Positions 31,837 to 50,058 of a DNA stretch of 64,000 bases are shown in pieces. The notes below the pieces were generated by a model. The model was not told the origin of the DNA. It ran no database searches and saw nothing but the letters and a program-made list of their open reading frames with translations. Source of the stretch: a virus (lineage: Duplodnaviria > Caudoviricetes); the IMG/VR virus record IMGVR_UViG_3300031992_000038, positions 1 through 64,000 of that record. One strand, 5' to 3'. The position numbers were made by a program, and so were the translations under genes. How positions within the stretch are numbered: the first letter of the stretch is position 1; each line of letters opens with the position of its first letter.

Positions 31837-32155
31837 GAATCAAAATGTCATGGCGAAAATAGACGGAAAATACGAACAGCCTCTTACAGAAAGGCTCCTT
31901 GAACGAATCAAGGCGGAGGACAGCATAACCAAACGCCACCACCTGATTCCGATATACCTTCACGAAAGGGATGTGCAGATTCAAAAGGTGCTGGCGAACA
32001 TCGAGAACGACGACATAGACTTTGCTATGGTGATTGAGCAACTGTGGGAGGACCTGCAGCTTGCATGCGAACAAATCAAGGCCACAATGGTCAGGAGTGA
32101 TTTCTATGCGGACAGTTTTAATCTTACCAAATGGGACAGCAAAACAGACAGATAA
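31811..32155 (+). CDS. Hypothetical protein
   Basis: ORF in a co-directional cluster; start uncertain. Confidence 0.6.
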   Translation: MTNQPPTIENQNVMAKIDGKYEQPLTERLLERIKAEDSITKRHHLIPIYLHERDVQIQKVLANIENDDIDFAMVIEQLWEDLQLACEQIKATMVRSDFYADSFNLTKWDSKTDR

Positions 32156-32160
32156 ACATC

Positions 32161-32634
32161 ATGGAACAATCAACAAGGAAACCACTTTCAAGAGAAGATG
32201 AGAAACTCCTCTACATCGACCTGTCAGCGAGACTGCCGTACGGAGTTCGCTTTATCACGACTGGTTCGGACTTCCCGTTCAGACTTGAATGGTTCGACGA
32301 CCGCCGACGCGCAAACGGAACGGTAAGACTTGAACATGTGATTCCTATCCTTCGCCCGATGTCTTCAATGACCCCGGAAGAACGAGAAGACTTCTGGAAA
32401 AATGTACTCGATATTGATTGGCGTGAATTGGAATTTGACGAAGAACCAGATGAAGTGCCATTCCCTTTTACGGAAAATGATTGCGGATTTTATCTAGACA
32501 ATCTTTATTTAACCGACTTGTTTGCCGTAATTGATTGGCTCAATGAACATCACTTTGACTGGCGAGGGCTTATTCCTAAAGGCATCGCATTGAGTACTGA
32601 GGAATTTAAGTTCAACCCATATAAAAATCAGTAA
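32161..32634 (+). CDS. Hypothetical phage protein (DLSARLPYGV / LRPMSSMT type)
   Basis: ORF in a co-directional cluster; 3' end duplicated at ~33490. Confidence 0.7.
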   Translation: MEQSTRKPLSREDEKLLYIDLSARLPYGVRFITTGSDFPFRLEWFDDRRRANGTVRLEHVIPILRPMSSMTPEEREDFWKNVLDIDWRELEFDEEPDEVPFPFTENDCGFYLDNLYLTDLFAVIDWLNEHHFDWRGLIPKGIALSTEEFKFNPYKNQ

Positions 32635-32637
32635 TTT

Positions 32638-33426
32638 ATGGGCGCAATAGATAAAATCTATCTCAAGAAAGACGACTACTTGGCATTCAAAGAGTGGTGC
32701 AAAAACCAACCGCCACTTCATGACAAGTACGGAAAGGAGATGCATATCACCGACTACTTGTGGAACATAGATGACGACGCATGGGGTGACGGAGACAATA
32801 CCCGCCCTGTGATGGGCGCACCATATTATGTCGATGCATACATCATCCGCAACTGCCCAATTGAAGGCGTTCAGGAGGAACTGCAACTCCACTATGGATA
32901 TTGGTCACAGGAACGAATCCGTGACTTTTATGAAAGTGTAAAGAATTATAACCCCGATAAAGACGGATCCCCATACTGGGCCAAACTTGCGGATTTCATC
33001 TTCAATGATGACGGCACAATGTCTATTAAAGGACTAGAAAAATCATCTTATGAAGAAATTCTTCATGGAGAATTGTATGCCTCACCATATCGTACCGGTT
33101 TGGAATATGGTTCTCATTTCAGACTGATTAAGTCCCCGAACGGAAAGAGAACAATTCCGTTCAATAGACCGGCAAAAGGAATGTGGTGGGTAACTGTTGA
33201 AAATACAAATGACCAATATGATTCCATGTGGTACACTGAAGGTACTGACACCTGGGATTTCACGGACGAGTTTGTGGTTGGATGCGGTATCTCAAACATC
33301 GCTTACGTGAAGACTATTACAGCTCTCGCAAGGAAAATCAGAAAGTGGAAACTCCCCATCGGAACAAAAGTAATTGCTACTGGAAGATATGTTGGTGAGG
33401 AATATGAATTCGTTGTGAAAAAATAA
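32638..33426 (+). CDS. Hypothetical protein
   Basis: 262-aa ORF. Confidence 0.75.
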   Translation: MGAIDKIYLKKDDYLAFKEWCKNQPPLHDKYGKEMHITDYLWNIDDDAWGDGDNTRPVMGAPYYVDAYIIRNCPIEGVQEELQLHYGYWSQERIRDFYESVKNYNPDKDGSPYWAKLADFIFNDDGTMSIKGLEKSSYEEILHGELYASPYRTGLEYGSHFRLIKSPNGKRTIPFNRPAKGMWWVTVENTNDQYDSMWYTEGTDTWDFTDEFVVGCGISNIAYVKTITALARKIRKWKLPIGTKVIATGRYVGEEYEFVVKK

Positions 33427-33489
33427 AAAACATTCTCGAAGAATATAAATTCCACTGTCTTAATATATGCTCAAACGAAGCTGAAATGT

Positions 33490-33584
33490 TTGATTGGCTC
33501 AACAAAAAGATGTTCGGCTACAGAGGTTTGATTCCTAAAGGAATCGCATTGAGTACTGAAGAATTTAACCCGTATAACGCATAA
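33490..33584 (+). pseudogene. Duplicated 3' fragment of the 32161..32634 gene
   Basis: Encodes FDWLNKKMFGYRGLIPKGIALSTEEFNPY versus IDWLNEHHFDWRGLIPKGIALSTEEFKFNPY. Confidence 0.75.
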
Positions 33585-33598
33585 CGATTAAAAGAAGA

Positions 33599-34417
33599 AT
33601 GAACGAAGGGAAATCATACATAAACAGGATTTACAACGAGGACTGCCTCGCCACGATCGAACGCCTTGCTGAAAACCGTGTCCGTGTGGACGGCGTGATG
33701 ACATCACCGCCATACAACATGACACCGCGGAAGGGCGGTTATGCCGATACCGGAAGATATGACTCGTACAACGATTGGTTGCCGGAGGGCACCTACATAG
33801 AATGGACTGTCAATGTATTCAACCAACTAAACACGATACTTCGCGCCAACCGTGTTATCCTGTACAATTTCTCCTACTCCATAGAGAACCCTGCGCTACC
33901 GTATAGACTCGTATACGCCATAACGGAGGAAACACCGTTCGACCTGATAGACACCATCATATGGAAGAAAAAGTCGGGACTCCCATTTCCAGCAAACGGC
34001 AAGAGGCTGTCACGCAATTGGGAGTACGTGTTCGTGTTCGCACGAAAAACCGAGACGAACACCTACGAAAACAACCGCAAGGTGAAATCCGTCAGCGAGA
34101 AGACCGGACAGAAATACTACGAGGTGACATACAACTTCGTCGAGGCGGCAAACAACGACGGAAAGACGCCGATAAACCAGGCAACCTACTCCACAGACCT
34201 GTGTCTGAAACTCTTCAGCACATACTTCAAGCCCGGATGGGTCATATACGACCCGTTCTCCGGAACCGGCACAACGGCGGTGGCGTCAAAAATATACGGG
34301 TGCGACTATATAGGAAGCGAGATAAGCAAGGCGCAGTGCGATCACGCAGAGGAACGGATTTCAAATCTTCGTGACAACTTGAACGAGCAAAAGGATATGG
34401 CCAACCGAAGAGTTTAA
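33599..34417 (+). CDS. N4/N6 DNA methyltransferase (beta class)
   Basis: TSPPYN before YDPFSGTGTT. Confidence 0.9.
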   Translation: MNEGKSYINRIYNEDCLATIERLAENRVRVDGVMTSPPYNMTPRKGGYADTGRYDSYNDWLPEGTYIEWTVNVFNQLNTILRANRVILYNFSYSIENPALPYRLVYAITEETPFDLIDTIIWKKKSGLPFPANGKRLSRNWEYVFVFARKTETNTYENNRKVKSVSEKTGQKYYEVTYNFVEAANNDGKTPINQATYSTDLCLKLFSTYFKPGWVIYDPFSGTGTTAVASKIYGCDYIGSEISKAQCDHAEERISNLRDNLNEQKDMANRRV

Positions 34418-34435
34418 CCCCTACAATAGAAAGCA

Positions 34436-34675
34436 ATGAAAAAGATTATCCTATTGGCAGTTGCAATCTTGATGATGGTGGGGTGTGCTGAAGAAAGTAC
34501 TCAACCAATAGAGTCGCTTGAAATGCGCACATATATTGTTGACTCATGCGAATACGTTGGCAAGCATATTGGTAGTCGATGGGGCATACTTGCCCACAAG
34601 GGTAACTGCCGATATTGCGCAGAGCGCAGAAAGCAAGAACTTGAGGCATTGGCCGAACAACTAAAAGGGAAGTAA
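34436..34675 (+). CDS. Small lipoprotein
   Basis: MKKIILLAVAILMMVG-C; HKGNCRYC. Confidence 0.7.
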   Translation: MKKIILLAVAILMMVGCAEESTQPIESLEMRTYIVDSCEYVGKHIGSRWGILAHKGNCRYCAERRKQELEALAEQLKGK

Positions 34676-34678
34676 GAT

Positions 34679-35541
34679 ATGGAAGCATGGAAAATGACAG
34701 GTGACCTGTATGACGATGTGAAGATAGTTCACGAGGCTATCTGTGGTCTTCATTCAATGGTCGAAACTCTCGAAAAAGAGTGCATGGTGCGTGATAAGGG
34801 TAAGGTCGCCACTGAGTTGTTTATACACATTAACGATGTAAAACGTGAGATGGAGAAGGTGGTTTCTGAAAGCGAAAGAATAATGCGACGAGCTGACATT
34901 GACCGGTTTGGACCTTTAAGCAAATATATAAGGCCCTATTTGGCATTTTAAAAAACGACATTATGGAAGCACCGGAGAAGATTTATATTCACCCCGATAT
35001 AGGTGGTAGAGAATTTTTGCGTCCTTGGTTACATAGACCAGCAAACAACGAAAGTGTTGAGTACACCCGTACTGATGCTTTTATCGAGAAGGCGTGTAAA
35101 TGGTTGGAAAGTTTATATGCACCTGATGGTTCTATTGCTCCATGTCATGTGCATATAATTGAAGATTTCAAAAAATATATGGAAGGAGAGTAAGATATGG
35201 CAACAATTAAAAGTTACACCTCGTTAGAGCAGTCCAAGAAACTGGCAGAGATATTGCCGGTTGAGAGTGCGGACATGAGATATGCGCCTTTCGGTGACAC
35301 ACATCCGTGGTTTTGGCATGGTCACTTACTTGAGAAAGGGGCAATCCCATGTTGGAGTCTTGCTGCATTGCTTGGTATTTTGTCTTTTCCGGCATTACGC
35401 TATGATATAGAAGATGGTGAGGGTGGATGGATTGTAAGTTGCGAAAAGGATGATAAAGGGTATCTTTCATATTATAGGGACAACCCCGTTGATACATGTT
35501 ATGACATGATTATCAAGTTACACGAGCAAAAAGTATTGTAA
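34679..35541 (+). CDS. Three small hypothetical genes (34679..34951, 34963..35193, 35197..35541)
   Basis: Tightly spaced ATG ORFs; 35197 shares T/S...L...ADM...P.WS with 60856. Confidence 0.65.
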
Positions 35542-35543
35542 TT

Positions 35544-36263
35544 ATGGACTACAAAGAAAAGTATGAACAAGGTCTTGAATGTATTCAAGAGATACTGTGT
35601 GGTGCCGGTGACTCAATCAAGACATCTATATTAAGAAAAAGATTACAACCTTTCTTCCCAGAACTCCAAGAGTCAGAAGACGAGAGGATAAGGAAAGCAC
35701 TCATTGAATATTTTGAAGAACAATGTGATATGAGTGATTGGAACGGTGTTTATGGCTATCAAGTTCTTGCTTGGCTTGAAAAGCAAGGCATACAACCAAC
35801 CGACAAAGTTGAATCAAAGTTCAAGGTTAGGGATTGGATTACTAATGGACATTATACTCGTTTAATTGTTGGAGTTAATTCAAGGCATTATCAATTTAAG
35901 AATGGGGATGCTAAGTACATAGATGATATAGACAAAAATTATCACCTTTGGTCAATCGCTGACGCAAAAGACGGTGATGTACTTGTCGCTTCCGATGGTT
36001 CAATCTTTCTTTTTGCAGGCGTTGATGATTGTGCTTGTAAGTATTATGTCGCACTTACAACCGACAACTATGTTAAAATCAATTATGTTAAAATCAATAA
36101 AGAAGTAGATAGTGGATATTGGGAAACGTCAAAAGCAGTCCATCCAGCCACCAAAGAGCAACGAGACCTGCTTTTTTCAAAAATAAAAGAAGTTGGCTAT
36201 GCTTGGGATGATGAGAAGAAAAAACTGTCATATATAAAGTCAATAAAACGACTAACGAACTAA
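35544..36263 (+). CDS. YKEKY/ESEDERIRK/AWLEKQG family protein
   Basis: Modular motifs shared with 37189 and 38497, including WSIADAKDGDVL and HPATKEQRDLLF. Confidence 0.75.
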   Translation: MDYKEKYEQGLECIQEILCGAGDSIKTSILRKRLQPFFPELQESEDERIRKALIEYFEEQCDMSDWNGVYGYQVLAWLEKQGIQPTDKVESKFKVRDWITNGHYTRLIVGVNSRHYQFKNGDAKYIDDIDKNYHLWSIADAKDGDVLVASDGSIFLFAGVDDCACKYYVALTTDNYVKINYVKINKEVDSGYWETSKAVHPATKEQRDLLFSKIKEVGYAWDDEKKKLSYIKSIKRLTN

Positions 36264-36277
36264 GCAAAGTTAATAAC

Positions 36278-36898
36278 ATGGGTTTTAGAATTAGTTTATA
36301 TTGCGTGCCAAAAGAAATCATCCATAAGTATGAAAATTTCACAGAGGATGATTATCGCGCAGATAAAGATGGCATTATGTTCAATGAACTCCAAAAAGAA
36401 TGCGTCAAGTATGACACATTGACTAATATCATTGTCAGGGACTATGAAGATAAGTTTTCGTCCCGACTGTTTAAGAATGAACTTGCCATTGAGGATGATA
36501 TGTATTTTGGCACAATATCCAAAGAACAACTTTTGAACATCATAAAAGAAGTACGGACTAACTATATCATAAAATGGCTCAACGGGAGACGTGTTGATAG
36601 TAAAGGCAAATTGGGTGATGTGTGGTTAAACCCACCATCGTATTTGTGTAAAGATGGCGGATGGACCGCCGAAGAAGCAATGAAGGCTAATCAAGGTGAA
36701 TGGAACCTTAAAGCCAATAGATGGATTTATGACTGGTGGGATGGCGAGAAGAGACATTATCTTAACATAGATATAGATATGGACAATAAATGGATTGTTT
36801 CTGGCTCAGATTCGTATGAATATCTAATATTTGATCTAATCCACATATTAAAAATTTTTGACTGGGAAAATGATACATTGGTTTGTATCGGTGGTTAA
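36278..36898 (+). CDS. Hypothetical protein
   Basis: 206-aa AT-rich ORF. Confidence 0.7.
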   Translation: MGFRISLYCVPKEIIHKYENFTEDDYRADKDGIMFNELQKECVKYDTLTNIIVRDYEDKFSSRLFKNELAIEDDMYFGTISKEQLLNIIKEVRTNYIIKWLNGRRVDSKGKLGDVWLNPPSYLCKDGGWTAEEAMKANQGEWNLKANRWIYDWWDGEKRHYLNIDIDMDNKWIVSGSDSYEYLIFDLIHILKIFDWENDTLVCIGG

Positions 36899-36921
36899 AA
36901 CTGTAGCATACAAAGGCAAAA

Positions 36922-37167
36922 ATGATTGACGAGAAATGCAAAACATGCACAGAATTAATAGTTCCTTACTTTGGACTATACGATAGGCCGCAACCAAAGT
37001 TGCCAGAAGAATTGAAAGTCGGTACATGCAAATGCAATATGGACCTCAGTGACCGAATGGAAGAAGGATACTATGGATGGTGCCACCCAGATCTATGCAA
37101 AGGGTCCGGACACCCGTATTATTTTGTTTATCACGGAAAAAACATCGATATTGTGTTTAACAATTAA
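36922..37167 (+). CDS. Small Cys-containing hypothetical protein
   Basis: 81-aa ORF. Confidence 0.6.
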   Translation: MIDEKCKTCTELIVPYFGLYDRPQPKLPEELKVGTCKCNMDLSDRMEEGYYGWCHPDLCKGSGHPYYFVYHGKNIDIVFNN

Positions 37168-37188
37168 CAAGAAAAACGTTACATTCAT

Positions 37189-37968
37189 ATGGACTACGAA
37201 AAGAAATACAAAGATGCGCTTGATAGAGCAAAGGAAAAATATAGTGCATGCTCCGCACCGGCGCTTCTCGAATACATTTTCCCCGAACTCAAGGAGAGTG
37301 AGGGTGAAAGAATAGTAAAATGTTTGCTCAACTACTTCAATCATGTCCGTTATAATGGACTTGACCTAAAAGGTACAGATGTTGATGAAGTTATTGCCTG
37401 GCTTGAAAAGCAAGGCGAACAGAAACCTATTGACTATAATGAGGAATTAAAGAAATGTCGAGAAAATCCTTTATATTTCTTTGATAAATATGTGTCTGTA
37501 AAGCTCAAAAACCAAAAGCCAACTTGGGGTAAAGAGGATGAGAAGATAAGGAAAGAACTTATCACACATTTCAGAAATACAAGATGTGTAACAGAAGAAG
37601 GAGGTGAAACAATAGCAAAATGGATTGCTTGGCTTGAAAAGCAGAAAAATACCACAGACAAAGAGTACGTGTTTAGACCGTTGGCAGGTGACACCATCGA
37701 AAAAGCGGCGGAGCGAGCGGTTGAATTGGACGGTAAAGTTGTTCTGGCGTTCAATGGCGCTTACATACCGGTAGGTGATAAAACAAAAGATGAAATTGTC
37801 GCAGAATATCGCAATTGGGTTAAAAAGCAAGGCAAGCAACATTCTCATGTTGATATTGACAAGATGGTTGATGAATTTGCCGATACTGAAGTCGAGGGCT
37901 ATGGCCTTCCGAGTATGATTGAGGTAGATGCATATCGTAGGGACATTGAAGATGCGCTCGAAAAATAA
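37189..37968 (+). CDS. YEKKY/AWLEKQ family protein
   Basis: Repeated ...IAWLEKQ modules. Confidence 0.75.
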   Translation: MDYEKKYKDALDRAKEKYSACSAPALLEYIFPELKESEGERIVKCLLNYFNHVRYNGLDLKGTDVDEVIAWLEKQGEQKPIDYNEELKKCRENPLYFFDKYVSVKLKNQKPTWGKEDEKIRKELITHFRNTRCVTEEGGETIAKWIAWLEKQKNTTDKEYVFRPLAGDTIEKAAERAVELDGKVVLAFNGAYIPVGDKTKDEIVAEYRNWVKKQGKQHSHVDIDKMVDEFADTEVEGYGLPSMIEVDAYRRDIEDALEK

Positions 37969-38015
37969 CGTGAGCGTGAATGTCGTAGTTGTTGAACGAA
38001 TAAAAGATTGAGATT

Positions 38016-38492
38016 ATGACACAGGAAGAATTATATCAACAATATCTTGATGAGGTGAGTTCATTTGAAAGATATGGCAGCAAAAATGTTCTTACGTTTG
38101 ACGAGTGGAAATGGATTAAATCCACAATAGAGAATACTCGACCGGTATGTGAATCTGAACTAAATTCATACAAAGAATTATTGGGTCACACAACTCAAGA
38201 TATTGATACGTTAGAATAAGAAAAATTTTGAAACAACATGAAAGTTTGGTTAACTCTTGAAAAGGACCATTTTGGTACCGATAAAGTAATGTTGTGGTTC
38301 GATAAGCCGCAAAAGGTATATGATAAATTTCTTGGGAGAGAAACCTGGACTTTGGGGGAATACGCACATTTTTACTACCCGCTCTTGACATTAAAAGATG
38401 TCAACTATCTGGTAACTGAAGAGAACTCACCGCTTGAAATATATCTTCCGTTCATGCGTGAATTTGTTGTCGATCAAACCAAGTTAATTTGA
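38016..38492 (+). CDS. Two small hypothetical genes (38016..38219, 38238..38492)
   Basis: ATG ORFs in a co-directional cluster. Confidence 0.6.
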
Positions 38493-38496
38493 AATT

Positions 38497-39411
38497 ATGA
38501 AAGAACTTACTATAGAACAAAAAGCAAAAGCCTATGACGAGGCTTTAGAACGGGCGAAGAAATTGCAAGAAACTTGCGACAGTACGGCAGTAGTAGGATG
38601 GTGTGAGTATATCTTACCAGAACTCAAAGAGAAAGAGAGCGAGGACGATAGAACGAGAAAAGCAATACTTACAGGACTTATTGACTGTAGAGACGCCCCA
38701 GATTTGGGGTGGAGCGATTTCGGCGGTGTTAATATTGATGAGTGTATCGCTTGGATTGAGAAGCAAGGCGAACAAACTCATGCCGCACTTGACCAACCGG
38801 AAGTGACTAAGACAGGCGACCAAGAACTTGAACCAATGTTTAATGAAGGTGATTGGGTGGTATATGACCACAGACCTTACCAAGTCGTAGAACTTCCAAA
38901 AGAAGGCTATATTAATTTAGGTTTAAGAAGAAATGGAAAAGTCGAATTTGCACCCTCCCCTTATTGCAGACATTGGTCTATACAAGACGCAGAGGACGGC
39001 GATGTGCTGGCATCTGAGTTAACCGACTTCATATTTCTTTTCAGAGGTATTAAGGACAACAAAATTGATTTTTATTGTTCCTACGACACCAGACTCGAAT
39101 GGCCCGAGCCCGAACCTGATGATAGATTCGTCATCAAGGATACCAACCTGTATTATGGAAGGGTAGAAAAATCACAAGACATCCATCCCGCCACCAAAGG
39201 ACAACGAGACCTGCTTTTTGAAAAGATGAAGGAAGAGGGTTATGAATGGGATGGGGAAAAGAAAGAGTTGAAGAAGATTAAGCCCAAGAAACTTGATCCA
39301 GACAAGGTGATCGAGTGGCTGCGTAAAAACACCTGCACGGGTTGTTGGGATAGGGCTGATACAGCGATATCACAACGTATTGACAGATTCAAAAAAGATT
39401 TCAGACTATAA
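38497..39411 (+). CDS. KAKAYDEALERA/AWIEKQG family protein
   Basis: Paralogue of 35544. Confidence 0.75.
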   Translation: MKELTIEQKAKAYDEALERAKKLQETCDSTAVVGWCEYILPELKEKESEDDRTRKAILTGLIDCRDAPDLGWSDFGGVNIDECIAWIEKQGEQTHAALDQPEVTKTGDQELEPMFNEGDWVVYDHRPYQVVELPKEGYINLGLRRNGKVEFAPSPYCRHWSIQDAEDGDVLASELTDFIFLFRGIKDNKIDFYCSYDTRLEWPEPEPDDRFVIKDTNLYYGRVEKSQDIHPATKGQRDLLFEKMKEEGYEWDGEKKELKKIKPKKLDPDKVIEWLRKNTCTGCWDRADTAISQRIDRFKKDFRL

Positions 39412-39444
39412 TAACTGAAGATTACTACAAAACGACAGAATAAA

Positions 39445-40131
39445 ATGGGAACTTCTAAACAGTCACAAAAGGAAATTGGTATAGAGTCAGCCATTCTCCG
39501 CCTAAGGGAACTGCATGACTTGATCAAGGAACATCCATACTGGATGGCCTTCAAGTTCCATATGTTCAAACGTGAGATATATCCAATGTATGAAGAAGTG
39601 TTTGAATTATATTCTTATCTAAGATTCAATAAAGAATATAAAGATTCTGACTCTCCGTGGTTTGCCACAATGTCAACCATTTATCATGATTTTCATTCAA
39701 TGCTCGGAATCCTAATTTACAACCCCAGAATTTTTGAAACGCCGGTTGAGGATACTGACTTGTTCAAACAGTATTACCTTCCGATGTTGCAGAATTTTCT
39801 TCAGATTCTACACTTCTTCGTCGAGGGCATGAATGCGCCGGAAAACATGGTGATGTACATGCCGGACAAGGTCCATAACCCAAAAACCATGCACAAGTAC
39901 ATGCCGGTGTATCACGAGAATTGGAAAGATGAATCAGGATATAACTTTTGGTTTGACGGATATTATAAGTGGAGAGCATTAAAATGCATTAAGAAAGATG
40001 ACGTCAACAAAGCAATCGAAAAATTCAAAAAATTAACGCATGAGACAACAAGTGCGTCTTTAAAAGAATTTTATCAACACGCAATAATGGACATCGAAAA
40101 CGGAACGGCATTGGTACATAAAATCATTTAG
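39445..40131 (+). CDS. Hypothetical protein
   Basis: 228-aa ORF. Confidence 0.7.
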   Translation: MGTSKQSQKEIGIESAILRLRELHDLIKEHPYWMAFKFHMFKREIYPMYEEVFELYSYLRFNKEYKDSDSPWFATMSTIYHDFHSMLGILIYNPRIFETPVEDTDLFKQYYLPMLQNFLQILHFFVEGMNAPENMVMYMPDKVHNPKTMHKYMPVYHENWKDESGYNFWFDGYYKWRALKCIKKDDVNKAIEKFKKLTHETTSASLKEFYQHAIMDIENGTALVHKII

Positions 40132-40152
40132 TAACACCATACAAAGTTGAAG

Positions 40153-40470
40153 ATGGACAAGATTCTTGACCTACCGCTCAAGAAAGAGTTGCACGAATTG
40201 ATTGGTCCAACCAAGGAGGATATTGCAATGCTTTATGAGAACGAGTCTAGGGAACTACTGAATGAGGCGGCCGCGGCCGACAACAGCGGCTCGTTCGAGA
40301 CCGTCGTATTCCCCATCATCCGCAGGGTATTCTCGAAACTGCCTGCAAACGACTTGGCGAATGCGCATCTCATAGAAGAGTTTCCAACGACCTTTCCTAC
40401 CCATGAATGGGCTGAGGTCATCGGCAACATCCATGATAATCCCGAACTACTAGAAAGTGACACAAACTGA
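40153..40470 (+). CDS. Chimeric ORF: major-capsid-protein fragment plus YopX-like tail
   Basis: LYENESRELLNEA...SGSFETVVFPIIRRVFSKLPAND (gp23-like N-terminal region); EVIGNIHDNPELL (YopX C-terminus). Confidence 0.6.
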   Translation: MDKILDLPLKKELHELIGPTKEDIAMLYENESRELLNEAAAADNSGSFETVVFPIIRRVFSKLPANDLANAHLIEEFPTTFPTHEWAEVIGNIHDNPELLESDTN

Positions 40471-40669
40471 AGGCAAGTGTATGACAATGGACAAGGAGAA
40501 CGGAACGTCATTGGTACGCAAAATCATTTAGGAACGCCACACGGAGCACGAAAAAGTCAAGAAAAATTTTGTTAAGGATTTTTAACACCGAAAATTTGCC
40601 CCGACCGGTTATTATGCTTACCTTCCCACCATAAGCAAAAAGTTAAACCATTCAGACAAAATTCATAAG

Positions 40670-43111
40670 ATGACTAAAATCTCCAAATTCCACGAGCTAA
40701 TCAAGAACGCCCACATCGAGAAGGACGTCGAGAGCGTATACACCCAGGGCATCACCATGTATTTCCCTGAGGCTGATATTGAACACCCGTTCGCGTGCGA
40801 CAGTTTCATCGACACGAAGACTGACAACGGCAAGATGCTCAAGCTCATCATCGAGTACAAGTTCGATGAGGACTTCTCGACCCGAACCGCACGCTCAAAG
40901 GTCATCGCACAGGTGCTTTATTACATGAAGCGCTTCGAGCAGAACGGCATGATTCTTCCCAACGTTGTCATGGTCGGCGACGTGAACGAGTGCTTCGTGT
41001 TCCACAGCAACGACATCATCAAATACCTCGACGAGGACATCGACTGGACAATCGCCCCGTCAGAGGCCCATCACCGCAACCCAGACCTTGTCATGAAGCT
41101 GAACGACGACGAGAACGTCAACCCGTTCATATTCCGCATTGACGAGCATTTCTCGTTCAAGAGCGTTGTAGAGCGCATCAAACAACTCGCCGACAACATC
41201 CAGCGGTACGTGCACGTGACCGAGCACAACATCGCCACCATATTCGAGTACTTCTGCGACAGGGTAATCAAGGACCGCAAGAAGATTCAGGCGAACGACC
41301 TCGTCGCCGTGTTCATGGGAGTGATAACGAAGGGGGAGAACTACTACAAGCACCCTAACAAGAAGAACACGCTCGTCACGCCGTTCGGGAACATCAGCAT
41401 CAACTCGGACGGGTACGACTCGTTCTTCTCGTACTTCAACCGCAACTACACGCCGCAGGAGAAGAACCGATTCGCCGAGATTTCGGACCGACTGATTGAG
41501 GATACGAACCGCAGAAACAAAGGGGAGTTCTACACTCCGACCTTGTTCGTGGACTATGCCCATAAGATGATTGCCGAGCAGTTCGGAGAGGACTGGAAGG
41601 AGAAGTACGTGGTGTGGGACAATAGCGCAGGAAGCAAGAATCTCACCCGTGACTACTACTTCAAGGAACTGTATTCGTCAACGCTCGAACAGGCCGAACT
41701 TGACATCTCATCACAATATAATAAGGAGGCGACGTCATTCCAGTTCGACTTCCTCAACGACCCGTTGGAGAAACTTCCGCAGGGGCTGAAGGACGCGCTT
41801 GAACAGGACAAGCCCATCATCTTCTTCATGAATCCGCCTTATGCTACAGCAGCAAGTGGAAAGGGAAAAGATGGGAAAACAAACGTTTCAAATACAATTG
41901 TTTATGATACAATGATTGATGATTGTGGAAGGTGCAGCCAGAATCTTTATGCACAGTTCATCTACCGTATCATGATGATTAAGCGTAAATATAATTTGAC
42001 AGACTGTCACATAGCTATGTTCACCAAAACCTTGCATTTGACAGGTAGTAGTTGGAAGAAATTTAGGGATGAATTCTTCAAAGATTTCAATTATATCAAT
42101 GGATGCATGTTCAATGCTTCTCACTTTGCTGACTGTTCTGATAAATGGGGCATTTCATTTGCTATATGGAAATCAAATATGCCAAACAGCATTGATAATT
42201 TCACACATATTCTAATTGATAGCAAAGACGGTGAAATTGTTAATGTTGGCGAAAAAACATTATACAATATGGACAGCCAACAATCCGCAAGCGATTGGGT
42301 AAGAGAGGGGATAAAGGGGATTGAAAAAGAATTAAGACCACACCTTTCAAGCGCAATAACGATTTCGGAGAAACAAAATCAAACGCTAGCGAAAAATGCG
42401 TTAGGAAGTCTAATGTCGTTATCAAATAATGTATATGAAAACGCACAAGGCGTTGGTTTGTCTTCAACAATTCAAACAAAAGGCAGCGCATGCATTTCAA
42501 TATCTATTCTTCCGACGAATTTCACCCGTTGCACCTCTCTGTTCGCGGCCCGCAAGTTAGTAGTCGGTAACTGGATTAACGACAAGGACGAGTACATGGC
42601 ACCGAACACGGAGCACGAGAAGTGGCAGGAGTTCGAGAGTGACAGTGTTGTCTATTCGCTGTTCAACACCTCTTCCAATCAGTCTTCTCTCCGCAATGTG
42701 GAGTACAAGGGCAAGTCATGGGACATCAAGAACGAATTTTTCTGGATGTCCAAGGACGTGATGATGGCATTGGCCGAGGAGTTCTCCAACGACTACTGCT
42801 ACAACGACGCCCGCGTGTCAGACGAGCGATATGTGTACAAACTCCTTCAGGGAATGGAGTTGAGCAAGGAGGCGCGTGACGTCCTGCTGAAGGCAACGCA
42901 GATTGTCGCCAAGTCGTTCCCTTACCGACAGATGTTCAACGAGGAGCATCCAGAGTATCAGGTAATTAACTGGGATTGCGGATGGTACCAGGTCAAGGCG
43001 ATTGCAAAGGAATACCTGAAGGATGACCTTGAGGAGTTCAAAGCGCTCTACAAGAAACTCTCGGAGAAGATGCTCCCGATGGTGTATGAACTAGGGTTCT
43101 TGAGAAAGTAA
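40670..43111 (+). CDS. Type IIG-like restriction/methyltransferase fusion
   Basis: N-terminal D...IIEYK nuclease-like motif; GEFYTP, VWDNSAGSKNL and FMNPPY. Confidence 0.75.
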   Translation: MTKISKFHELIKNAHIEKDVESVYTQGITMYFPEADIEHPFACDSFIDTKTDNGKMLKLIIEYKFDEDFSTRTARSKVIAQVLYYMKRFEQNGMILPNVVMVGDVNECFVFHSNDIIKYLDEDIDWTIAPSEAHHRNPDLVMKLNDDENVNPFIFRIDEHFSFKSVVERIKQLADNIQRYVHVTEHNIATIFEYFCDRVIKDRKKIQANDLVAVFMGVITKGENYYKHPNKKNTLVTPFGNISINSDGYDSFFSYFNRNYTPQEKNRFAEISDRLIEDTNRRNKGEFYTPTLFVDYAHKMIAEQFGEDWKEKYVVWDNSAGSKNLTRDYYFKELYSSTLEQAELDISSQYNKEATSFQFDFLNDPLEKLPQGLKDALEQDKPIIFFMNPPYATAASGKGKDGKTNVSNTIVYDTMIDDCGRCSQNLYAQFIYRIMMIKRKYNLTDCHIAMFTKTLHLTGSSWKKFRDEFFKDFNYINGCMFNASHFADCSDKWGISFAIWKSNMPNSIDNFTHILIDSKDGEIVNVGEKTLYNMDSQQSASDWVREGIKGIEKELRPHLSSAITISEKQNQTLAKNALGSLMSLSNNVYENAQGVGLSSTIQTKGSACISISILPTNFTRCTSLFAARKLVVGNWINDKDEYMAPNTEHEKWQEFESDSVVYSLFNTSSNQSSLRNVEYKGKSWDIKNEFFWMSKDVMMALAEEFSNDYCYNDARVSDERYVYKLLQGMELSKEARDVLLKATQIVAKSFPYRQMFNEEHPEYQVINWDCGWYQVKAIAKEYLKDDLEEFKALYKKLSEKMLPMVYELGFLRK

Positions 43112-43141
43112 GGAATATATTGCTTAATCGTTTATAATTTC

Positions 43142-43600
43142 ATGGAAATAAAGTTCAAGACGAAAGATGAGATAGAAAGCATTGCTCTTCACGAGTTGAG
43201 AAAGTCGCCAAACAAGAAACTGCTCAGCAACACGAACGTGGACTGTTTCATAAGCGGGTGGAATGCCGCGTCGAACGACATCAGGTCACAGATGACCGCG
43301 GAGAAACTGAAAGAGTTCAGGGAGTATCTGAAGGAACTGTCGGAGTACTGCGACGAGAGAATGAGACGTCAGAACGAAGACCTCGGTTACAGCGGTTATA
43401 TGTACACGGTTCCCAGCGACGCGCAGTTGATATTTGAACTGTGGAAACGTGTCGGTGAAGCCTGTGAGACGATAAGCGCGAACCTCGAGAACGTCAAAAT
43501 GAGCCGCGGCGAGTATTACGACAAGGTGAAAGGATGCGGGGATGAATCCACTACACCTTTGCTATGCCGGATTCATGGGAGACAGATGAAAGCATTTTAA
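43142..43600 (+). CDS. Hypothetical protein
   Basis: 152-aa ORF. Confidence 0.7.
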   Translation: MEIKFKTKDEIESIALHELRKSPNKKLLSNTNVDCFISGWNAASNDIRSQMTAEKLKEFREYLKELSEYCDERMRRQNEDLGYSGYMYTVPSDAQLIFELWKRVGEACETISANLENVKMSRGEYYDKVKGCGDESTTPLLCRIHGRQMKAF

Positions 43601-43680
43601 CCATTTTTAACGAAATAAAATTGTTCATCTCAGAAACTTTGTGTACCTTCCACAATCAGAAAACAAAATGTTTTGTCATT

Positions 43681-44139
43681 ATGGACAGATTCAAAGCAAT
43701 ACAGGACGAGATTATCAGCAAGTACCGCGTGAACATTGACGCCAATTCCACGTGCCGGACACGGACGCATGCCCACGTGAGGGAGCGCAGGGTGTGCAAA
43801 TGGGTGCGGAAGAACAGTTTCGAGAGCACGTTCACGCTCCTTCATGAGGTTGGTCACATAGAGACGAAAAAGTCCTCGATGCGCCGTTCCGAGAGCGAGT
43901 ATTATGCGACGTGTTGGGCGTTGGATAGATGCCGCGAATACGGTCTGCAGGTGCCGGAGAAGACCCTCCACGTGTATCAGCGGTACATCCTTCAGGAAGT
44001 CGCGAGAGGCAAACGCAGGGGCGGGTGCGGATACGGAGAGTTGAACATTTACAAGTATTACGGCATTGACAAGACAATCAAGCAGTTCGTAGGCGAGCTG
44101 GAACCGGCGTGGGCGAGATGCATAGCGCCGTGGATTTAG
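43681..44139 (+). CDS. HExxH metallopeptidase-like protein
   Basis: TLLHEVGH with downstream ESEYYA. Confidence 0.65.
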   Translation: MDRFKAIQDEIISKYRVNIDANSTCRTRTHAHVRERRVCKWVRKNSFESTFTLLHEVGHIETKKSSMRRSESEYYATCWALDRCREYGLQVPEKTLHVYQRYILQEVARGKRRGGCGYGELNIYKYYGIDKTIKQFVGELEPAWARCIAPWI

Positions 44140-44203
44140 CTGTTAAGTTTTTGGATTGAGGTTTCTTTCGGGTTATATTCTTATTTAAGACTAAATAAAG
44201 ATT

Positions 44204-47200
44204 ATGAAAAAATTTGCAAACCTCCAGAAGGAGGTAAAGACTGTCAAATTTGGGCTTAAGCCAATTGGAATGACAGAAAAGTTCATCAAGGATAGAGGTC
44301 TCCTTGACGCGCAGTATTCAATCAACGACAGACTGGAAGAGGCGAAACTGGTCCTTGACCGTGTATATCTCGATGTCCTCAGCCGAAGTATGTCGTCCAT
44401 TGACCCGAAAATCGCTGACGGGTTGTATGACGTGTGGCTGAAAGACCAGAAAAAGTTCACTAACAGCAATGAGTTCAATTCCGCTAAAGATACATTTGTT
44501 GGCAAAATTAAAGGATATATTAGAGAACTAATTAAAACCGAGAAAGAAAATTATGACTTTAATGTCAATAATATCCTAAACGATATAGACACCTTCTGCG
44601 GTGGGGATGATGTCTTAAAGAGCGAACTACACAGCATTAAGAATGACTTTAGCGGACGTTCAGCTTATTTCACGGAATATTGCACCAGCAAAAACCCTGC
44701 ATTGTTCGGAACCGAAACAAATTCTTCCTCATATCGTGTCTTTAATGAGAACCTTGTGACATTCTTCAAGAATGTGAAAGCGTTCCGCTCAATCAGTCCT
44801 GATCAAATGACGACGGTTCTTAAATTTGTTGATGGTCTCGATGAAATCATGGTACCGGATAATGGTTTGAAGTATATTCTGCAATCAGACATTGACGTGT
44901 ATAATAAGGTGATTGCTGAATACGCTTCTGCGCGACAGGAACTCCAAAGCAAGGACAAGGGGTTGAGCCTTCCGAAACTTGAGAAACTCGCGAAGCAGAT
45001 TCTTTCTGAGGCCGAGAAGAAATTCCAGCCAATCGAGAGTGACGAGGAGGTGTTTTCGTTCCTGGACGAGAACATCGAAGACCTTACGTCCGCAATATTG
45101 AAACTGAAAGAGTTGTTCAGTGGGATTGGTTCGATTTATGACAAGGAGAAAATCCTGATTGCAAAGAAGGTGAAGGCTAAAAAGGATGAATTCTCCATGA
45201 TTTCGAACGCCTGCATGCATAGTTGGGACGGAATAAAGAACCTAATCATAGAGAACTGGAAGGCTGAAAATCCTAAGGGTAAGGAAAACGTAAAGGACAA
45301 GAAAGCAAACAAATTCTACAAGCAGTTAAGCAATATTTCATTGCTTGAACTTGAAAAAATCACGAACAGTGATGCGGCAACATCTTATCTGATCGGACTA
45401 GGCGAGAAGAACGACAGAGAACTTCAGGAGGCTGACCTTGCTTCACTCGCCATAAACGCTTACAACGTGTTCAAGGAAGAACACGAGAAGGGTCTTGACA
45501 AGAGACTCAAGAACATTGATAACTCAAAGAACATAAACGCATTCTTTGACACGCTGATTAGACTGAAGGACTTCATCTCCCAGATATATGTCGGAGAGGG
45601 CATAGATGACACCTGCGAGTTCTATCAGGAACTTCTTCCTGCGAAATGCAAACTCGAGGAGGTTGTCAGTGAGTGGGTAAGAATCCGAAGTTACCTCACC
45701 AAGAAGGACTACATTCAGAACGAACTGCGTGTCTATTTCGGATTGAACGCGAATTTGATGGGTGGGTGGACACACAAAGAGAATGGTGAGTTTCCAAAAC
45801 GTTCAATTATGTTCAAGGGTGTCGGGGACGATTATTATGTCGGAATTCTTGCTGGGGTTTCCAGTGCCAAAAAGATTTTAAATGGAGAAATAGGTGACGG
45901 AAGATTCCGATATCTTGACATAACAAATTATGACAAAAAGAATATCGAAAGACTTGTTCAAACTTTTTGTGGTGGCAAGAAACCAGATGAAGATGGCCTT
46001 ATTAAAGTCCTCACAAGCAAAGAATGGGCACAAAAGTACCCAAAGTTAGTTTTGGAGAAAACCGATGGGTTCAGCAGTACAGACGAAATCTATAAATCAC
46101 TTTGCCATCAAGAAATGAGATGGGTTGCATGTTCACGCGAAGCCGTAGACACGATGGTTGAGAGTGGTGATTTGTATCTCTTCAAACTTTCTTGTCGGGA
46201 TTTCAGCAAGCATTCAAAAGGTAATCCACAACTGTACACTATGTACCTGCGTGCGCTGTTAAGTGACGACAATCCGATTGGAAGATATTTCATCAATGGT
46301 AACGGAAAAATCACTTTCAGACCGAGGACAGTTGTCGACAATACAAATATTGGTGATTTCGCCATCCACAGGGCAAATTTCCCCATTGATAACAAGCGGA
46401 ACATTGAAGGCGGTGAGAAAAGTGCCACGTATCCATATGACATTGAGAAGAACAAGCGTTTCAAGTCGGATTCATGGTTCATCAGTTTACCGTTATCCGT
46501 GAACGAAGGCAAGAAAATCACCCAAAAGGAAATCAATGACCTTGTCAACGGCATGATTTCAACCGGTGAGATTAAGCACGTCATCGGTATTGACCGCGGC
46601 GAAAGGAACCTTGTCACCGTATCTATCGTGAACAAGGACACAATGGAAATCGTTGAGCAAAGAAGTCTGAACATCATCGGCAACACAGACTATAACAAAC
46701 TCATGGATGAGATGAGCGAGAACGTTAAGGATGATAGGAACAATTTGCGATTGGAAAGTTCGATGAGAAACATGTCCGAAGGTTATGTCAGCCATGCCGT
46801 GAATGAAATAGTACAACTTGTCAGGAAATACAATGCAGTAATCGCGATGGAAAACCTGGACAATCTTGGGCGCGGTAAAATCATCAAGAACATCTACACG
46901 AAGTTCGAGAACCAGTTATTGGACAAACTGTCGTTCATGGTGTTCAAGGATGTTGACAAGAACGACATTGGTGGCGTATACAATCCGCTCACGATGGCAA
47001 TAAAGAAGACGGACCAAACTAAATATGAAAAAACGTTGTCGCAGAACGGTATTGTTTTTTCGGTATTGCCTCAATACACATCAAGCATCGACCCTGTAAC
47101 TGGTTTTGCGAATGTGCTTGACATGCAGAATGTGAAGACTATTGACTCGATCAAGAAGTTCTTCTACTCATTCGACTATATACGCTATGACAAGGAACAT

Positions 47201-47824
47201 GACCATTTCGTGTTTGGCGCCGACTGGAAGAAATTCAAACTAAAGAACAGTGTAAAGGTGAATGAATTGAACAGGACCGAATGGACACTTGTGTCAAGTG
47301 GAATAAGGATCAGGTACAAAAAGACAAAGAACAGTTCGCACCGAACCATTGAGGAGCATGACCCTACTGAGGAACTCAAGAGAGCCATCGGAAGGTCTGG
47401 AAACAATTTCATGGAATGCGGAAACATCAAGAACATAATCATGAACCAGGACTCACATGACATCCTTGACGAATTCCTTGATGCGGTAAAACTGATTCTG
47501 CAGATGAGAAACAGCAAAGGGGAAGAGGACTACATCCTGTCACCGGCGCTAGACGAAAACGGAAAGCAGTTTGACTCACGTGAGCGTCATGGACAAACAA
47601 TGCCGAAAGACGGTGATACGAATGGCGCTTACAATATCGCAAGACGGGCCGTTATGCTCATCAGGAATGGTGATGACAATAAATATGACAGCAATGTGCA
47701 CTGGTTGAATTTTGCGCAAACCGAAGGAAGAATGCAAACCTTAGGTAATGTGCAAAGTACAAATTTTGACAACGAGTTCAAAACTAATGAGTTATGTTAT
47801 TCCGCATCGAAAAGGGTGGGGTAA
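44204..47824 (+). CDS. cas12a: Type V-A CRISPR effector Cas12a (divergent, 1206 aa)
   Basis: N-terminal KTVKFGLKPIG; RuvC-I IGIDRGERNL; RuvC-II IAMENL; YTSSIDPVTGF; LQMRNS; RuvC-III DGDTNGAYNIARR; adjacent V-A-like array. Confidence 0.93.
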   Translation: MKKFANLQKEVKTVKFGLKPIGMTEKFIKDRGLLDAQYSINDRLEEAKLVLDRVYLDVLSRSMSSIDPKIADGLYDVWLKDQKKFTNSNEFNSAKDTFVGKIKGYIRELIKTEKENYDFNVNNILNDIDTFCGGDDVLKSELHSIKNDFSGRSAYFTEYCTSKNPALFGTETNSSSYRVFNENLVTFFKNVKAFRSISPDQMTTVLKFVDGLDEIMVPDNGLKYILQSDIDVYNKVIAEYASARQELQSKDKGLSLPKLEKLAKQILSEAEKKFQPIESDEEVFSFLDENIEDLTSAILKLKELFSGIGSIYDKEKILIAKKVKAKKDEFSMISNACMHSWDGIKNLIIENWKAENPKGKENVKDKKANKFYKQLSNISLLELEKITNSDAATSYLIGLGEKNDRELQEADLASLAINAYNVFKEEHEKGLDKRLKNIDNSKNINAFFDTLIRLKDFISQIYVGEGIDDTCEFYQELLPAKCKLEEVVSEWVRIRSYLTKKDYIQNELRVYFGLNANLMGGWTHKENGEFPKRSIMFKGVGDDYYVGILAGVSSAKKILNGEIGDGRFRYLDITNYDKKNIERLVQTFCGGKKPDEDGLIKVLTSKEWAQKYPKLVLEKTDGFSSTDEIYKSLCHQEMRWVACSREAVDTMVESGDLYLFKLSCRDFSKHSKGNPQLYTMYLRALLSDDNPIGRYFINGNGKITFRPRTVVDNTNIGDFAIHRANFPIDNKRNIEGGEKSATYPYDIEKNKRFKSDSWFISLPLSVNEGKKITQKEINDLVNGMISTGEIKHVIGIDRGERNLVTVSIVNKDTMEIVEQRSLNIIGNTDYNKLMDEMSENVKDDRNNLRLESSMRNMSEGYVSHAVNEIVQLVRKYNAVIAMENLDNLGRGKIIKNIYTKFENQLLDKLSFMVFKDVDKNDIGGVYNPLTMAIKKTDQTKYEKTLSQNGIVFSVLPQYTSSIDPVTGFANVLDMQNVKTIDSIKKFFYSFDYIRYDKEHDHFVFGADWKKFKLKNSVKVNELNRTEWTLVSSGIRIRYKKTKNSSHRTIEEHDPTEELKRAIGRSGNNFMECGNIKNIIMNQDSHDILDEFLDAVKLILQMRNSKGEEDYILSPALDENGKQFDSRERHGQTMPKDGDTNGAYNIARRAVMLIRNGDDNKYDSNVHWLNFAQTEGRMQTLGNVQSTNFDNEFKTNELCYSASKRVG

Positions 47825-47895
47825 ACAACTAAAAAGAAGAAAAGACCAAAGCCGCTCATTTCCAATGGGTTGGATTAAAAACTTGGGCGGATAGG

Positions 47896-48597
47896 GTCTA
47901 TCAAAGATAAGAAATACCTACTTGTGTAGGTTTTTATGGACACAATGTCCGACTCTGCGGTCTATCAAAGATAAGAAATACCTACTTGTGTAGGTGGAGT
48001 GGTGCAGACAGATGTCCGATAAAGTCTATCAAAGATAAGAAATACCTACTTGTGTAGGTTATATAAAACCATGAAAAAATGAAGTAGTCTATCAAAGATA
48101 AGAAATACCTACTTGTGTAGGTCTTGATTGAGACGATGTCCGACTCTGCGGTCTATCAAAGATAAGAAATACCTACTTGTGTAGGTTAATCAGTTGGGCG
48201 GAGAAATTAAGCGCGTCTATCAAAGATAAGAAATACCTACTTGTGTAGGTGACATCTCACTTCCATGCTCCTTCAAAGTCTATCAAAGATAAGAAATACC
48301 TACTTGTGTAGGTCGGTTGTCAAACTTGATTCCTGTCTTCGTCTATCAAAGATAAAAAATACCTACTTGTGTAGGTTAAGGAGGGCTTACAGGCTATTGG
48401 GATGGTCTATCAAAGATAAGAAATACCTACTTGTGTAGGTAGGTTATTAGTTATTTTCAGCGTTTTCGTCTATTAAACATAAGAAATATCTACTTGTGTA
48501 GGTATTGGGACTTGACAAACTTACAATTCTTCGTCTATTAAAAATAAGAAATACTTACTTGTGTAGGTACAATTGGACACCAAGTCTATTAAAGATA
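47896..48597 (+). CRISPR. CRISPR array: 11 full 36-bp repeats plus a truncated 12th; ten spacers of 27-29 bp and a final 15-bp spacer
   Basis: Repeat GTCTATCAAAGATAAGAAATACCTACTTGTGTAGGT starts at 47896, 47960, 48024, 48087, 48151, 48215, 48278, 48341, 48405, 48468 and 48533; partial at 48584; degenerates distal to cas12a. Confidence 0.98.
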
Positions 48598-48762
48598 TTA
48601 ATCTGAAATTCATACTTCCTCAAGAAGTAAAAAACTTCTAACTGATTATTTGATATGGAAAACAATAACGGTTGGTCGCTTAACCGGGACGCCTGAAAAG
48701 GCGACACATTGGTGTTAGATGGCAAAACTTGACACAATAATTGGTACAAAACATTAAATAAT

Positions 48763-49146
48763 ATGGACCACACTATTACAATGTACACATGGGAGGTCGT
48801 TCTTTTCCTGTTTCTATACCTCGCGCTTTTCTTCTATGTCATATGGTCAAAGTCAAAAAGACAGTTGAACCCGGACATGTTTGATCGTGAAGGTGAAGTC
48901 AAACCGGTTGTTTTCAAGATAGTGAAGGCGGAAATGTCCGCAACGACGAAGTGTGAGGACGGTCCGCCAGTCCACCGCATGCTATGTAAGTACACCGCGG
49001 TCAACAGTTTTTTCAGAAAGCCGGGACTCAAAGACTACGAGTGCGACTTCTACGTGTTCTACGACGTCGCTGGCAAGTACAATATCGGCGATACGCTCAA
49101 ATTGGACAGTGTGTCGAAGGAATGCGACAATGTTAAACAAAACTAA
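48763..49146 (+). CDS. Hypothetical membrane-anchored protein
   Basis: N-terminal TM segment VVLFLFLYLALFFYVIW. Confidence 0.7.
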   Translation: MDHTITMYTWEVVLFLFLYLALFFYVIWSKSKRQLNPDMFDREGEVKPVVFKIVKAEMSATTKCEDGPPVHRMLCKYTAVNSFFRKPGLKDYECDFYVFYDVAGKYNIGDTLKLDSVSKECDNVKQN

Positions 49147-49220
49147 AGACTTGCCGATGTAAGATTTTTTTCCTATCTTTGCTCTCGTTGTCCAAAAAAC
49201 GATAATAAGGAGAATAAGAC

Positions 49221-49463
49221 ATGGCACTAAAATTAAGAAAAGATTCTGATTTCTATACACGAGTGATGAACGTCATCCAAGCAATGGAAGAAAATAATGT
49301 TAGGATTGAATGTGTTGATGGCGAATTTCGTATTTCTGATACAACTGAAGGGGCATCAGAACGACTTCAAGACATGATTCTGCATGATGGTGAGAATGAA
49401 CCTGTTCGAGTATTACCTTCAGATTTTGACACTGAATACACATTAAAAGTTTTTGATTCTTAA
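49221..49463 (+). CDS. Hypothetical protein
   Basis: 80-aa ORF; TATCTTTG promoter at 49174. Confidence 0.7.
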   Translation: MALKLRKDSDFYTRVMNVIQAMEENNVRIECVDGEFRISDTTEGASERLQDMILHDGENEPVRVLPSDFDTEYTLKVFDS

Positions 49464-49486
49464 TTGGTTTAAAAGCGCAGACAAGA

Positions 49487-49520
49487 AAATCCGCCGATTG
49501 CGAAAAGCGTCGGCGGATTT
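49487..49520. terminator. Hairpin between convergent genes
   Basis: AAATCCGCCGA...TCGGCGGATTT, similar to the hairpin at 58291-58324. Confidence 0.7.
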
Positions 49521-49566
49521 GTGCATCTATAGGTCACGGCCTCAAATGACCGGGCGGTCTGACGTG

Positions 49567-50058
49567 TCAACGTTTGTACTTCGCCTTGGCGTCATATATG
49601 CAATTGTCCAGCTCGCTGTAGAACTGTCCGCTAAGGTACTGCAGTCGCTTCTCGTACTCGTACTCTTCGTAGTGGTCATAGAACTCTTCTTCCGGAACCT
49701 TGTCGTATATTTCGTTCTCGTTGCTCGCCGGCATCACCTCGTCAAGGTCGAAATCGAGAGTGAATGCGGTGCTTTTAAGGCCACATATGACGGTGTCGCG
49801 CAGGAACTCATCGCCGCCTGCGGCGTTGATCGCATTCAGCACCTTTTCCATCTGTTGCTGCTCGATTTGCAAGTAGCGGAGCGCTGACGGGTTGTGCAGT
49901 TTTTCGTCCGCCTGTGACACCAGTTCCGCGAACTCGTTGTATATATTCTCCAGCGGTGCCGTGTCGACACTTGACGATGACTCGTTCAGTGCACGCCTAA
50001 CGCTTTCCGAGACAATTCTTCTTATATAGTTTCTGGTGATGTTTGCTTTTCTTGCCAT
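49567..50058 (-). CDS. Hypothetical protein with leader
   Basis: ITRNYIRRIVSESVRRALNES; TATTTAT at 50081-50087. Confidence 0.75.
   Translation of the reverse strand: MARKANITRNYIRRIVSESVRRALNESSSSVDTAPLENIYNEFAELVSQADEKLHNPSALRYLQIEQQQMEKVLNAINAAGGDEFLRDTVICGLKSTAFTLDFDLDEVMPASNENEIYDKVPEEEFYDHYEEYEYEKRLQYLSGQFYSELDNCIYDAKAKYKR

Follow-up and report, generated by a model that had tools for sequence, protein, structure and literature searches.

The window analyzed here, a stretch of 64 kb, is the initial part of a 115,873-bp virus record from IMG/VR that is about 32% complete according to CheckV. It encodes a terminase, a portal protein, a tail-fiber protein, a Clp-like protease and a helicase, and thus represents a fragment of a huge phage; a contig of about 330 kb with an identical Cas12a is also on record. 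The public sequencing runs that contain this stretch are sheep and bovine gut metagenomes, and the source is a huge phage from ruminant guts. The features of the locus under study are:

44204–47824, + strand: cas12a, 1206 aa, type V-A effector (by Pfam and phmmer)
47825–47895, + strand: CRISPR leader, 71 nt, A-rich, from the cas12a stop codon to the first repeat
47896–48568, + strand: CRISPR array, 11 repeats of 36 nt and 10 spacers of 27–29 nt
47932–47959, + strand: spacer 1, targets integrase allele A of a 25-kb temperate phage
48060–48086, + strand: spacer 3, targets the 25-kb phage as well, at the ribosome-binding site and start of its major capsid gene
48123–48150, + strand: spacer 4, targets integrase allele B of the same 25-kb phage at the same site as spacer 1
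48187–48214, + strand: spacer 5, targets a second, unrelated phage
48584–48619, + strand: decayed terminal repeat remnant, after a truncated spacer of 15 nt (by direct reading)

The region from 32000 to 50000, which holds cas12a and the array, has a GC content of 38–47%, compared with about 50% elsewhere in the window. Its open reading frames are mainly without Pfam matches, and an N6/N4 DNA methylase is encoded at 33599–34417.

The Pfam domains RuvC_1 (7e-52), NUC (6e-37) and REC1 (2e-10) were detected in the Cas12a protein, and phmmer comparison with the Cas12a chains in the PDB yielded highly significant matches to ReChb (6e-103), Lb2Cas12a (2e-95) and LbCas12a (2e-89). Judged by these similarities, the protein is a type V-A effector, that is, a single large effector with a split RuvC, a Nuc domain and homology to Cas12a. 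The repeats have the features expected of a type V-A array as well: they are 36 nt long and end, directly 5′ of the spacer, in a predicted Cas12a-type hairpin with a 5-bp stem and a 4-nt loop (CCUAC-UUGU-GUAGG-U, written ...AAUACCUAC-UUGU-GUAGGU). In a relative with 85% identical Cas12a, the repeat (L034, 4613–4648) has the stem CCTGC...GCAGG instead of the CCTAC...GTAGG of the window (47896–47931); this double change from A-U to G-C is compensatory, so that the crRNA hairpin is kept. Because the hairpin lies at the 3′ end of the repeat, the 5′ end of the spacer is the PAM-proximal seed, in agreement with the sequence-only reading of this locus. T-rich 5′ PAMs (TTTV) flank the protospacers of spacer 1 (TTTC), spacer 3 (TTTA) and spacer 5 (TTTA).

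The two degenerate repeats of the array are the final two, at the end far from cas12a, and the array of the relative L033 is decayed at its end in a similar fashion. The 71-nt stretch between cas12a and the first repeat is nearly identical in two relative contigs, the Cas12a proteins of which are 88% and 85% identical to that of the window. Together, the degenerate far end and the conserved stretch adjoining cas12a place the leader beside cas12a and make spacer 1 leader-proximal, so that spacer 1 is presumably the newest spacer.

No Pfam match for Cas1, Cas2 or Cas4 was found within the 115,873-bp record, which covers about a third of the genome, and the open reading frames neighboring cas12a have no Pfam match. 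The absence of local cas1 and cas2 claimed in the sequence-only reading therefore holds for the 116 kb on record, and extends to cas4, but is limited to that third of the genome. Given that no adjacent cas4-cas1-cas2 module is present in the record, the locus is classed as a minimal effector-plus-array system, like those of other huge phages. The array repeat is absent from IMG/VR, and among 185,579 species genomes it gave only 11 single matches, which is the chance level, and no host array. IMG/VR contains no close relative of the Cas12a either; the two relatives found in Logan (L033 and L034) have collapsed arrays. Similarly, the Logan contigs that cover the window skip the array through a 509-nt repeat collapse and hence are silent on array variants. 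A close relative from a gut run (run X3), aligned to 48475–48700, has a different last spacer and small repeat changes, so that array content turns over among near-identical phages.

The most conspicuous feature of the array is the similarity of spacers 1 and 4. As the sequence-only reading had stated, the two spacers have the same register, are identical at 23 of 28 positions, and differ at positions 1, 4, 7, 10 and 13; on the reverse strand, both encode AESDIVSIK, with all five changes silent. Direct comparison reproduced each of these observations. The PAM-distal 15 nt are accordingly identical. When all spacers of the array were compared, the best other pair shared at most 15 of 23 overlapping bases, and an identity of 23/28 is expected by chance with a probability of about 3e-10 (arithmetic). 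The similarity of spacers 1 and 4 is far beyond chance. The probability that the five differences all fall in one codon phase is about 0.005, and if the spacers are read on the forward strand, the residue is altered in three of the four fully readable codons. Outside the array, the shared 15-mer does not occur elsewhere in the 116-kb record, and self-targeting was rejected.

The target was identified by searching for the peptide, one of the checks proposed on the basis of the sequence, and both alleles are present in public data. The site comprises codons 34–42 (AESDIVSIK) of a large serine recombinase (integrase) of 539 aa with Resolvase, Recombinase and Zn-ribbon domains. The contig that carries this gene is 25,001 bp long and has direct repeats at its termini. 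Genes for a terminase, a portal protein, a prohead protease, an HK97-type capsid protein and the tail are located on it as well; this contig is a small temperate phage. The target site immediately precedes the conserved EKESG motif of the serine recombinase family, a position that fits the lack of replacement changes there. No relative was found among cultured phages.

A codon-degenerate pattern for AESDIVSIK yielded one match in IMG/VR, and the same sequence was present in a metagenome contig in ENA. Exact spacer patterns, or patterns with N at the five variable positions, had no match in IMG/VR, and the exact and codon-degenerate patterns together, applied to IMG/VR and the JGI metagenomes, recovered allele A alone. 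Three metagenome sequences fitted the codon-degenerate pattern, two of which (L005 and L006) did so by chance, in unrelated frames, and were discarded. Allele A comes from IMG/VR, ENA and one Logan run (L003, L007 and L021). It matches spacer 1 at 27 of 28 positions, with a mismatch at spacer position 25, and is flanked by a TTTC PAM on the non-target strand. Allele B was found via three other members of the 90% protein cluster of the integrase and is represented by eight full-length Logan contigs from eight runs (L008–L015). It matches spacer 4 at 27 of 28 positions, with a mismatch at position 19 and identity at all five diagnostic positions. The sequence at the PAM position of allele B is TCTC, not TTTC, owing to a silent GAA to GAG change in the codon next to the protospacer. 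Thus, the flanks, which the sequence-only reading had proposed to inspect for the PAM, differ between the alleles. Searches with short integrase fragments for further alleles recovered relatives at 55–67% only.

Each spacer matches the opposite allele at 22 of 28 positions, that is, spacer 1 has one mismatch to A and six to B, and the converse is true of spacer 4. An exact 28/28 source was found for neither spacer (27/28 was the best match for both), nor were source haplotypes with GCA and TCG at codons 34 and 36. The four sequences can be arranged in a series, in which allele A is separated by one step from spacer 1, spacer 1 by five steps from spacer 4, and spacer 4 by one step from allele B. 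Each living allele is thus one base further away from its own spacer than the captured form.

An alternative origin of the peptide, the N-terminal leader of a sibling phage protein (LSESDLHRIV...), was rejected because the actual target is the integrase; the leader-coding sequences of the window have at least nine mismatches to either spacer. In a six-frame motif search, several unrelated open reading frames of the window were observed to share the N-terminal motif (K/R)xI(K/R)L(S/T)ES.L..(I/V), which is unrelated to the spacer target:

10860; 21674, − strand; 25274, − strand; 29614, − strand: open reading frames with this motif

The other spacers extend the target range of the array. Spacer 3 matches the 25-kb phage at 26 of 27 positions, with a TTTA PAM and a mismatch at position 5. 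Its site is identical in the A-type and in seven B-type contigs, and there is no hot spot of substitutions. One contig (L042, 600–635) has an extra A in the A-run of this protospacer, just 5′ of the capsid start codon; the mismatch at position 5 is common to the other eight target-phage contigs examined. Spacer 5 matches a 33.6-kb IMG/VR contig (L044, 1501–1528) at 27 of 28 positions, with a TTTA PAM, within an open reading frame of 266 aa that has no family match. The array is therefore aimed at no fewer than two different phages. For spacers 2 and 8, a search of IMG/VR with 20-nt seeds gave no match; spacers 2 and 4 overlap by 9 nt, which is no more than chance would produce among 45 pairs. 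TTGNCAAACTT is common to spacers 7 (48314–48340) and 10 (48504–48532), as is the terminal CTTC, with a length difference of 3 nt between the two; no target was found for either. These spacers may be another pair derived from related targets, or the similarity may be due to chance.

The two integrase alleles differ at 66 of 1620 nt (4.1%), with 54 silent and 11 replacement codons. These differences are distributed unevenly. In codons 34–46, a stretch that spans the protospacer, the PAM and eight more bases, 10 of the 13 codons are silently changed, compared with five silent changes in the next-densest window of 13 codons; when the silent changes were shuffled 200,000 times, the maximum per window was nine, and none of the shuffles reached 10. 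No other 40-nt stretch of the 3.2 kb over which A and B align well has as high a density of differences. The raw hot-spot statistic is inflated, because the site was reached via the spacers, and the five seed-side changes were given beforehand. Beyond the five codons that define the pair, however, there are eight flanking codons, of which five differ, where the background is about 8%; the probability of this is about 2e-4 (arithmetic). Substitutions are thus in excess at the protospacer and PAM, at a site that was chosen after the spacers had been seen. Across the aligned DNA, differences between A and B near TTTV sites average 2.4 versus 1.5 per 32 nt, a comparison with overlapping windows that is confounded by AT-rich intergenic DNA and includes the focal site.

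Cleavage by Cas12a occurs after positions 18 and 23, counted from the PAM, which correspond here to nt 109 and 104 of the integrase coding sequence. The mismatch of allele B at position 19 therefore adjoins the predicted cut in the non-target strand. A third type of change is present in a single Logan contig (L016, 238–783), in which an in-frame deletion of 1074 nt between two copies of the 10-base sequence GGCAGAGCGT reduces the integrase to 181 aa and removes the protospacer along with most of the catalytic domain. Nucleotide 90 of the coding sequence is the last of the near copy, so that the deletion begins 14–19 nt from the predicted cuts at nt 104–109. Flanking SNPs identify this contig as a third lineage, and the phage would be unable to integrate. 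As to the PAM of allele B, some Cas12a enzymes accept C-containing PAMs, and TCTC may still be usable for the Cas12a of the window. The interpretation offered in the sequence-only reading, escape in a constrained gene, is thus partly supported: the silent hot spot, the PAM change and the deletion are marks of the escape type, and the site adjoins the EKESG motif.

How did two versions of one site come to be in the same array? One conceivable route, in which a single repeat-spacer unit was duplicated and its copy mutated at random, could appeal to the in-register identity of 23/28 and to nothing else. The five differences reproduce natural differences between A and B, all of them fall on third codon positions, and the surrounding repeats are unmutated. 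The sequence-only reading had named the existence of a single natural allele, with the other a mutated duplicate, as the observation that would overturn it; both synonymous alleles were found in nature, and given that each spacer matches its own allele, duplication with subsequent mutation is practically ruled out. A more elaborate version is that a duplicated spacer 4 unit had its PAM-proximal 13 nt rewritten from allele A without Cas1-Cas2. The PAM-distal 15 nt, which are identical in both spacers and one base off each extant allele, would be compatible with such an origin, as would the absence of cas1, cas2 and cas4 from the record, and spacer 1 would then be B-like at codon 34 and A-like elsewhere. 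However, unsampled intermediate haplotypes account for the identical PAM-distal halves more simply, the search for adaptation genes covered a third of the phage genome only, and the two units are separated by spacers 2 and 3. Moreover, the spacers are flanked by repeats without homology to the target, so that conversion would have to begin and finish inside 28 bp; no such mechanism is known. We consider this origin extremely unlikely, and of the two implications that the sequence-only reading had drawn, templated updating of spacers found no evidence in its favor. The other, strong site preference, is plausible, and retention by selection explains the shared site equally well. That an array without adaptation genes re-samples or rewrites a spacer at a fixed site as the rival recodes, by site-directed, primed-like or templated renewal, appears very unlikely.

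More weight has to be given to an account without any escape, in which two long-diverged phage lineages co-circulate and each was sampled once at a favored PAM site, the silent patch is a mosaic recombination tract that owes nothing to CRISPR pressure, and the deletion variant an unrelated defective phage. The divergence of 4.1% between A and B extends across the gene, several smaller silent clusters make the differences clumpy elsewhere in the integrase too, and downstream modules are replaced outright. The ratio of transitions to transversions in the patch of codons 34–46 equals that in the rest of the gene (transitions and transversions are about equally frequent throughout the integrase), and the silent patch could be an ordinary recombination tract. 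Furthermore, the conserved site of spacer 3 lacks a comparable hot spot, and one protospacer can be acquired independently more than once (PMC5071653). Against this account, the patch coincides with the protospacer and PAM within a few bases, takes in the PAM base itself, and has twice the density of any other window. The left end of the deletion lies next to the predicted cut, at the distance given above. Finally, about 350 TTTV sites are present in 21.6 kb of the target phage, and the probability that two of the three spacers against this phage share one of about 400 such sites is about 0.7% under uniform sampling. Taken together, these observations make the account without escape unlikely. 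We consider it probable, instead, that the array supplies guides for Cas12a against rival phages, that spacers 1 and 4 are separate captures, and that the target changed through escape driven by Cas12a.

According to this preferred reading, cas12a and the 10-spacer array would form a minimal type V-A system that is used against rival phages, and spacers 1 and 4 would derive from two separate captures of one PAM-flanked site of 28 bp, from two natural variants. An older B-like variant with a TTTC PAM would have given rise to spacer 4. Pressure by Cas12a would then have favored descendants with an altered site and an unaltered protein. In allele B, the PAM would have been lost (GAA to GAG, TTTC to TCTC) and the mismatch beside the cut gained. 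In allele A, the five seed-side third codon positions would have been changed, whether through a series of mutations or through recombination over a short patch; having retained TTTC, this allele could be captured again, as spacer 1. In the third variant, recombination between the 10-bp repeats beside the cut would have deleted the site. The spacers were presumably installed by Cas1-Cas2(-Cas4) in trans, encoded either by a host or in the two thirds of the phage genome that lie outside the record. The site may recur because TTTV sites are scarce in a target with 55% GC and because constrained coding sites would give lasting immunity. From the order of the array, in which spacer 4 is the older one, from codon preference, and from a distant outgroup, we infer that the B-like form was met first and that A and B represent two exits from it. 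Specifically, allele A has the minor codon at 5/5 positions (ATT, ATA, AAA, GAA and AAA) and B has the preferred codons, and the outgroup shares three positions with B and one with A.

Same-site spacer pairs, as well as phage arrays directed against rival phages, are already known; what is added here is resolution, in that the target gene was identified, both alleles were found, and three kinds of escape mark were observed at one protospacer. Most of what is known about phage-encoded CRISPR systems comes from inventories of genes, and cases in which the target has been identified, with variation on both sides, are few. In the present case, two guides, two natural alleles, a lost PAM and a cut-side deletion are in hand, for a gene that permits silent changes only. 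The four or five target variants and the two crRNAs make up a natural test set, with which the mismatch and PAM tolerance of a compact, divergent Cas12a, as well as the renewal of an array without cas1 and cas2, can be addressed. No new mechanism is revealed; rather, findings on escape from Cas12a in the laboratory have counterparts in wild gut viruses. If the array were indeed renewed at a fixed site, the integrase would be the first field record of three Cas12a escape routes, namely silent recoding of the seed, loss of the PAM, and cut-side microhomology deletion, at a single protospacer.

Several known systems invite comparison. The vibriophage ICP1, reported on by Seed and colleagues in 2013, is said to use a type I-F CRISPR-Cas system against the PLE island. 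As in the window, a phage, in that case a lytic one, would aim its own array at a rival mobile element in the same host; ICP1, in contrast, reportedly has a full adaptation module and acquires spacers, and the effector type, the target type and the host all differ. Andersson and Banfield, in 2008, reportedly found that short recombination blocks alter spacer-sized stretches of viral genomes and so defeat stored spacers. That work is said to concern archaeal and bacterial hosts in acid-mine biofilms, whereas here the pressure would come from another phage and the change is confined to silent sites of one constrained gene.

Among huge phages, arrays without adaptation genes target rival phages (Al-Shayeb et al., 2020, PMC7162821). 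The system of the window resembles these in that it is phage-encoded, has a compact array and an effector with intact nuclease domains, and lacks cas1, cas2 and cas4 nearby. It differs in its effector, a regular full-length Cas12a; the paper names V-I, V-U, V-F and CasPhi, but never Cas12a. A further difference is the resolution reached here, which extends to the phage that is targeted, to its two alleles and to the escape marks. In the type I-C and I-F systems of Legionella pneumophila, two independently acquired spacers share one protospacer, and the arrays preserve traces of repeated encounters with a single mobile element (Rao et al., 2016, PMC5071653). Those are bacterial type I systems with their own Cas1-Cas2 and priming, whereas the window has a phage-borne type V-A system without adaptation genes, and its spacer pair, unlike that of Legionella, comes from two silent alleles.

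A parallel to the changes in the target is provided by the escape of phage lambda from FnCas12a. There, a single mismatch is often tolerated, so that additional mutations build up; mutations distal to the PAM appear close to the cut; selection favors microhomology deletions where the target is non-essential; and several mismatched crRNAs combined protect better against the phage (Schelling, Nguyen and Sashital, 2023, PMC10132644). The escape of lambda took place in the laboratory and within days, whereas the wild gut phages appear to display three matching outcomes, namely silent change at multiple sites, a cut-side mismatch together with loss of the PAM, and microhomology deletion.
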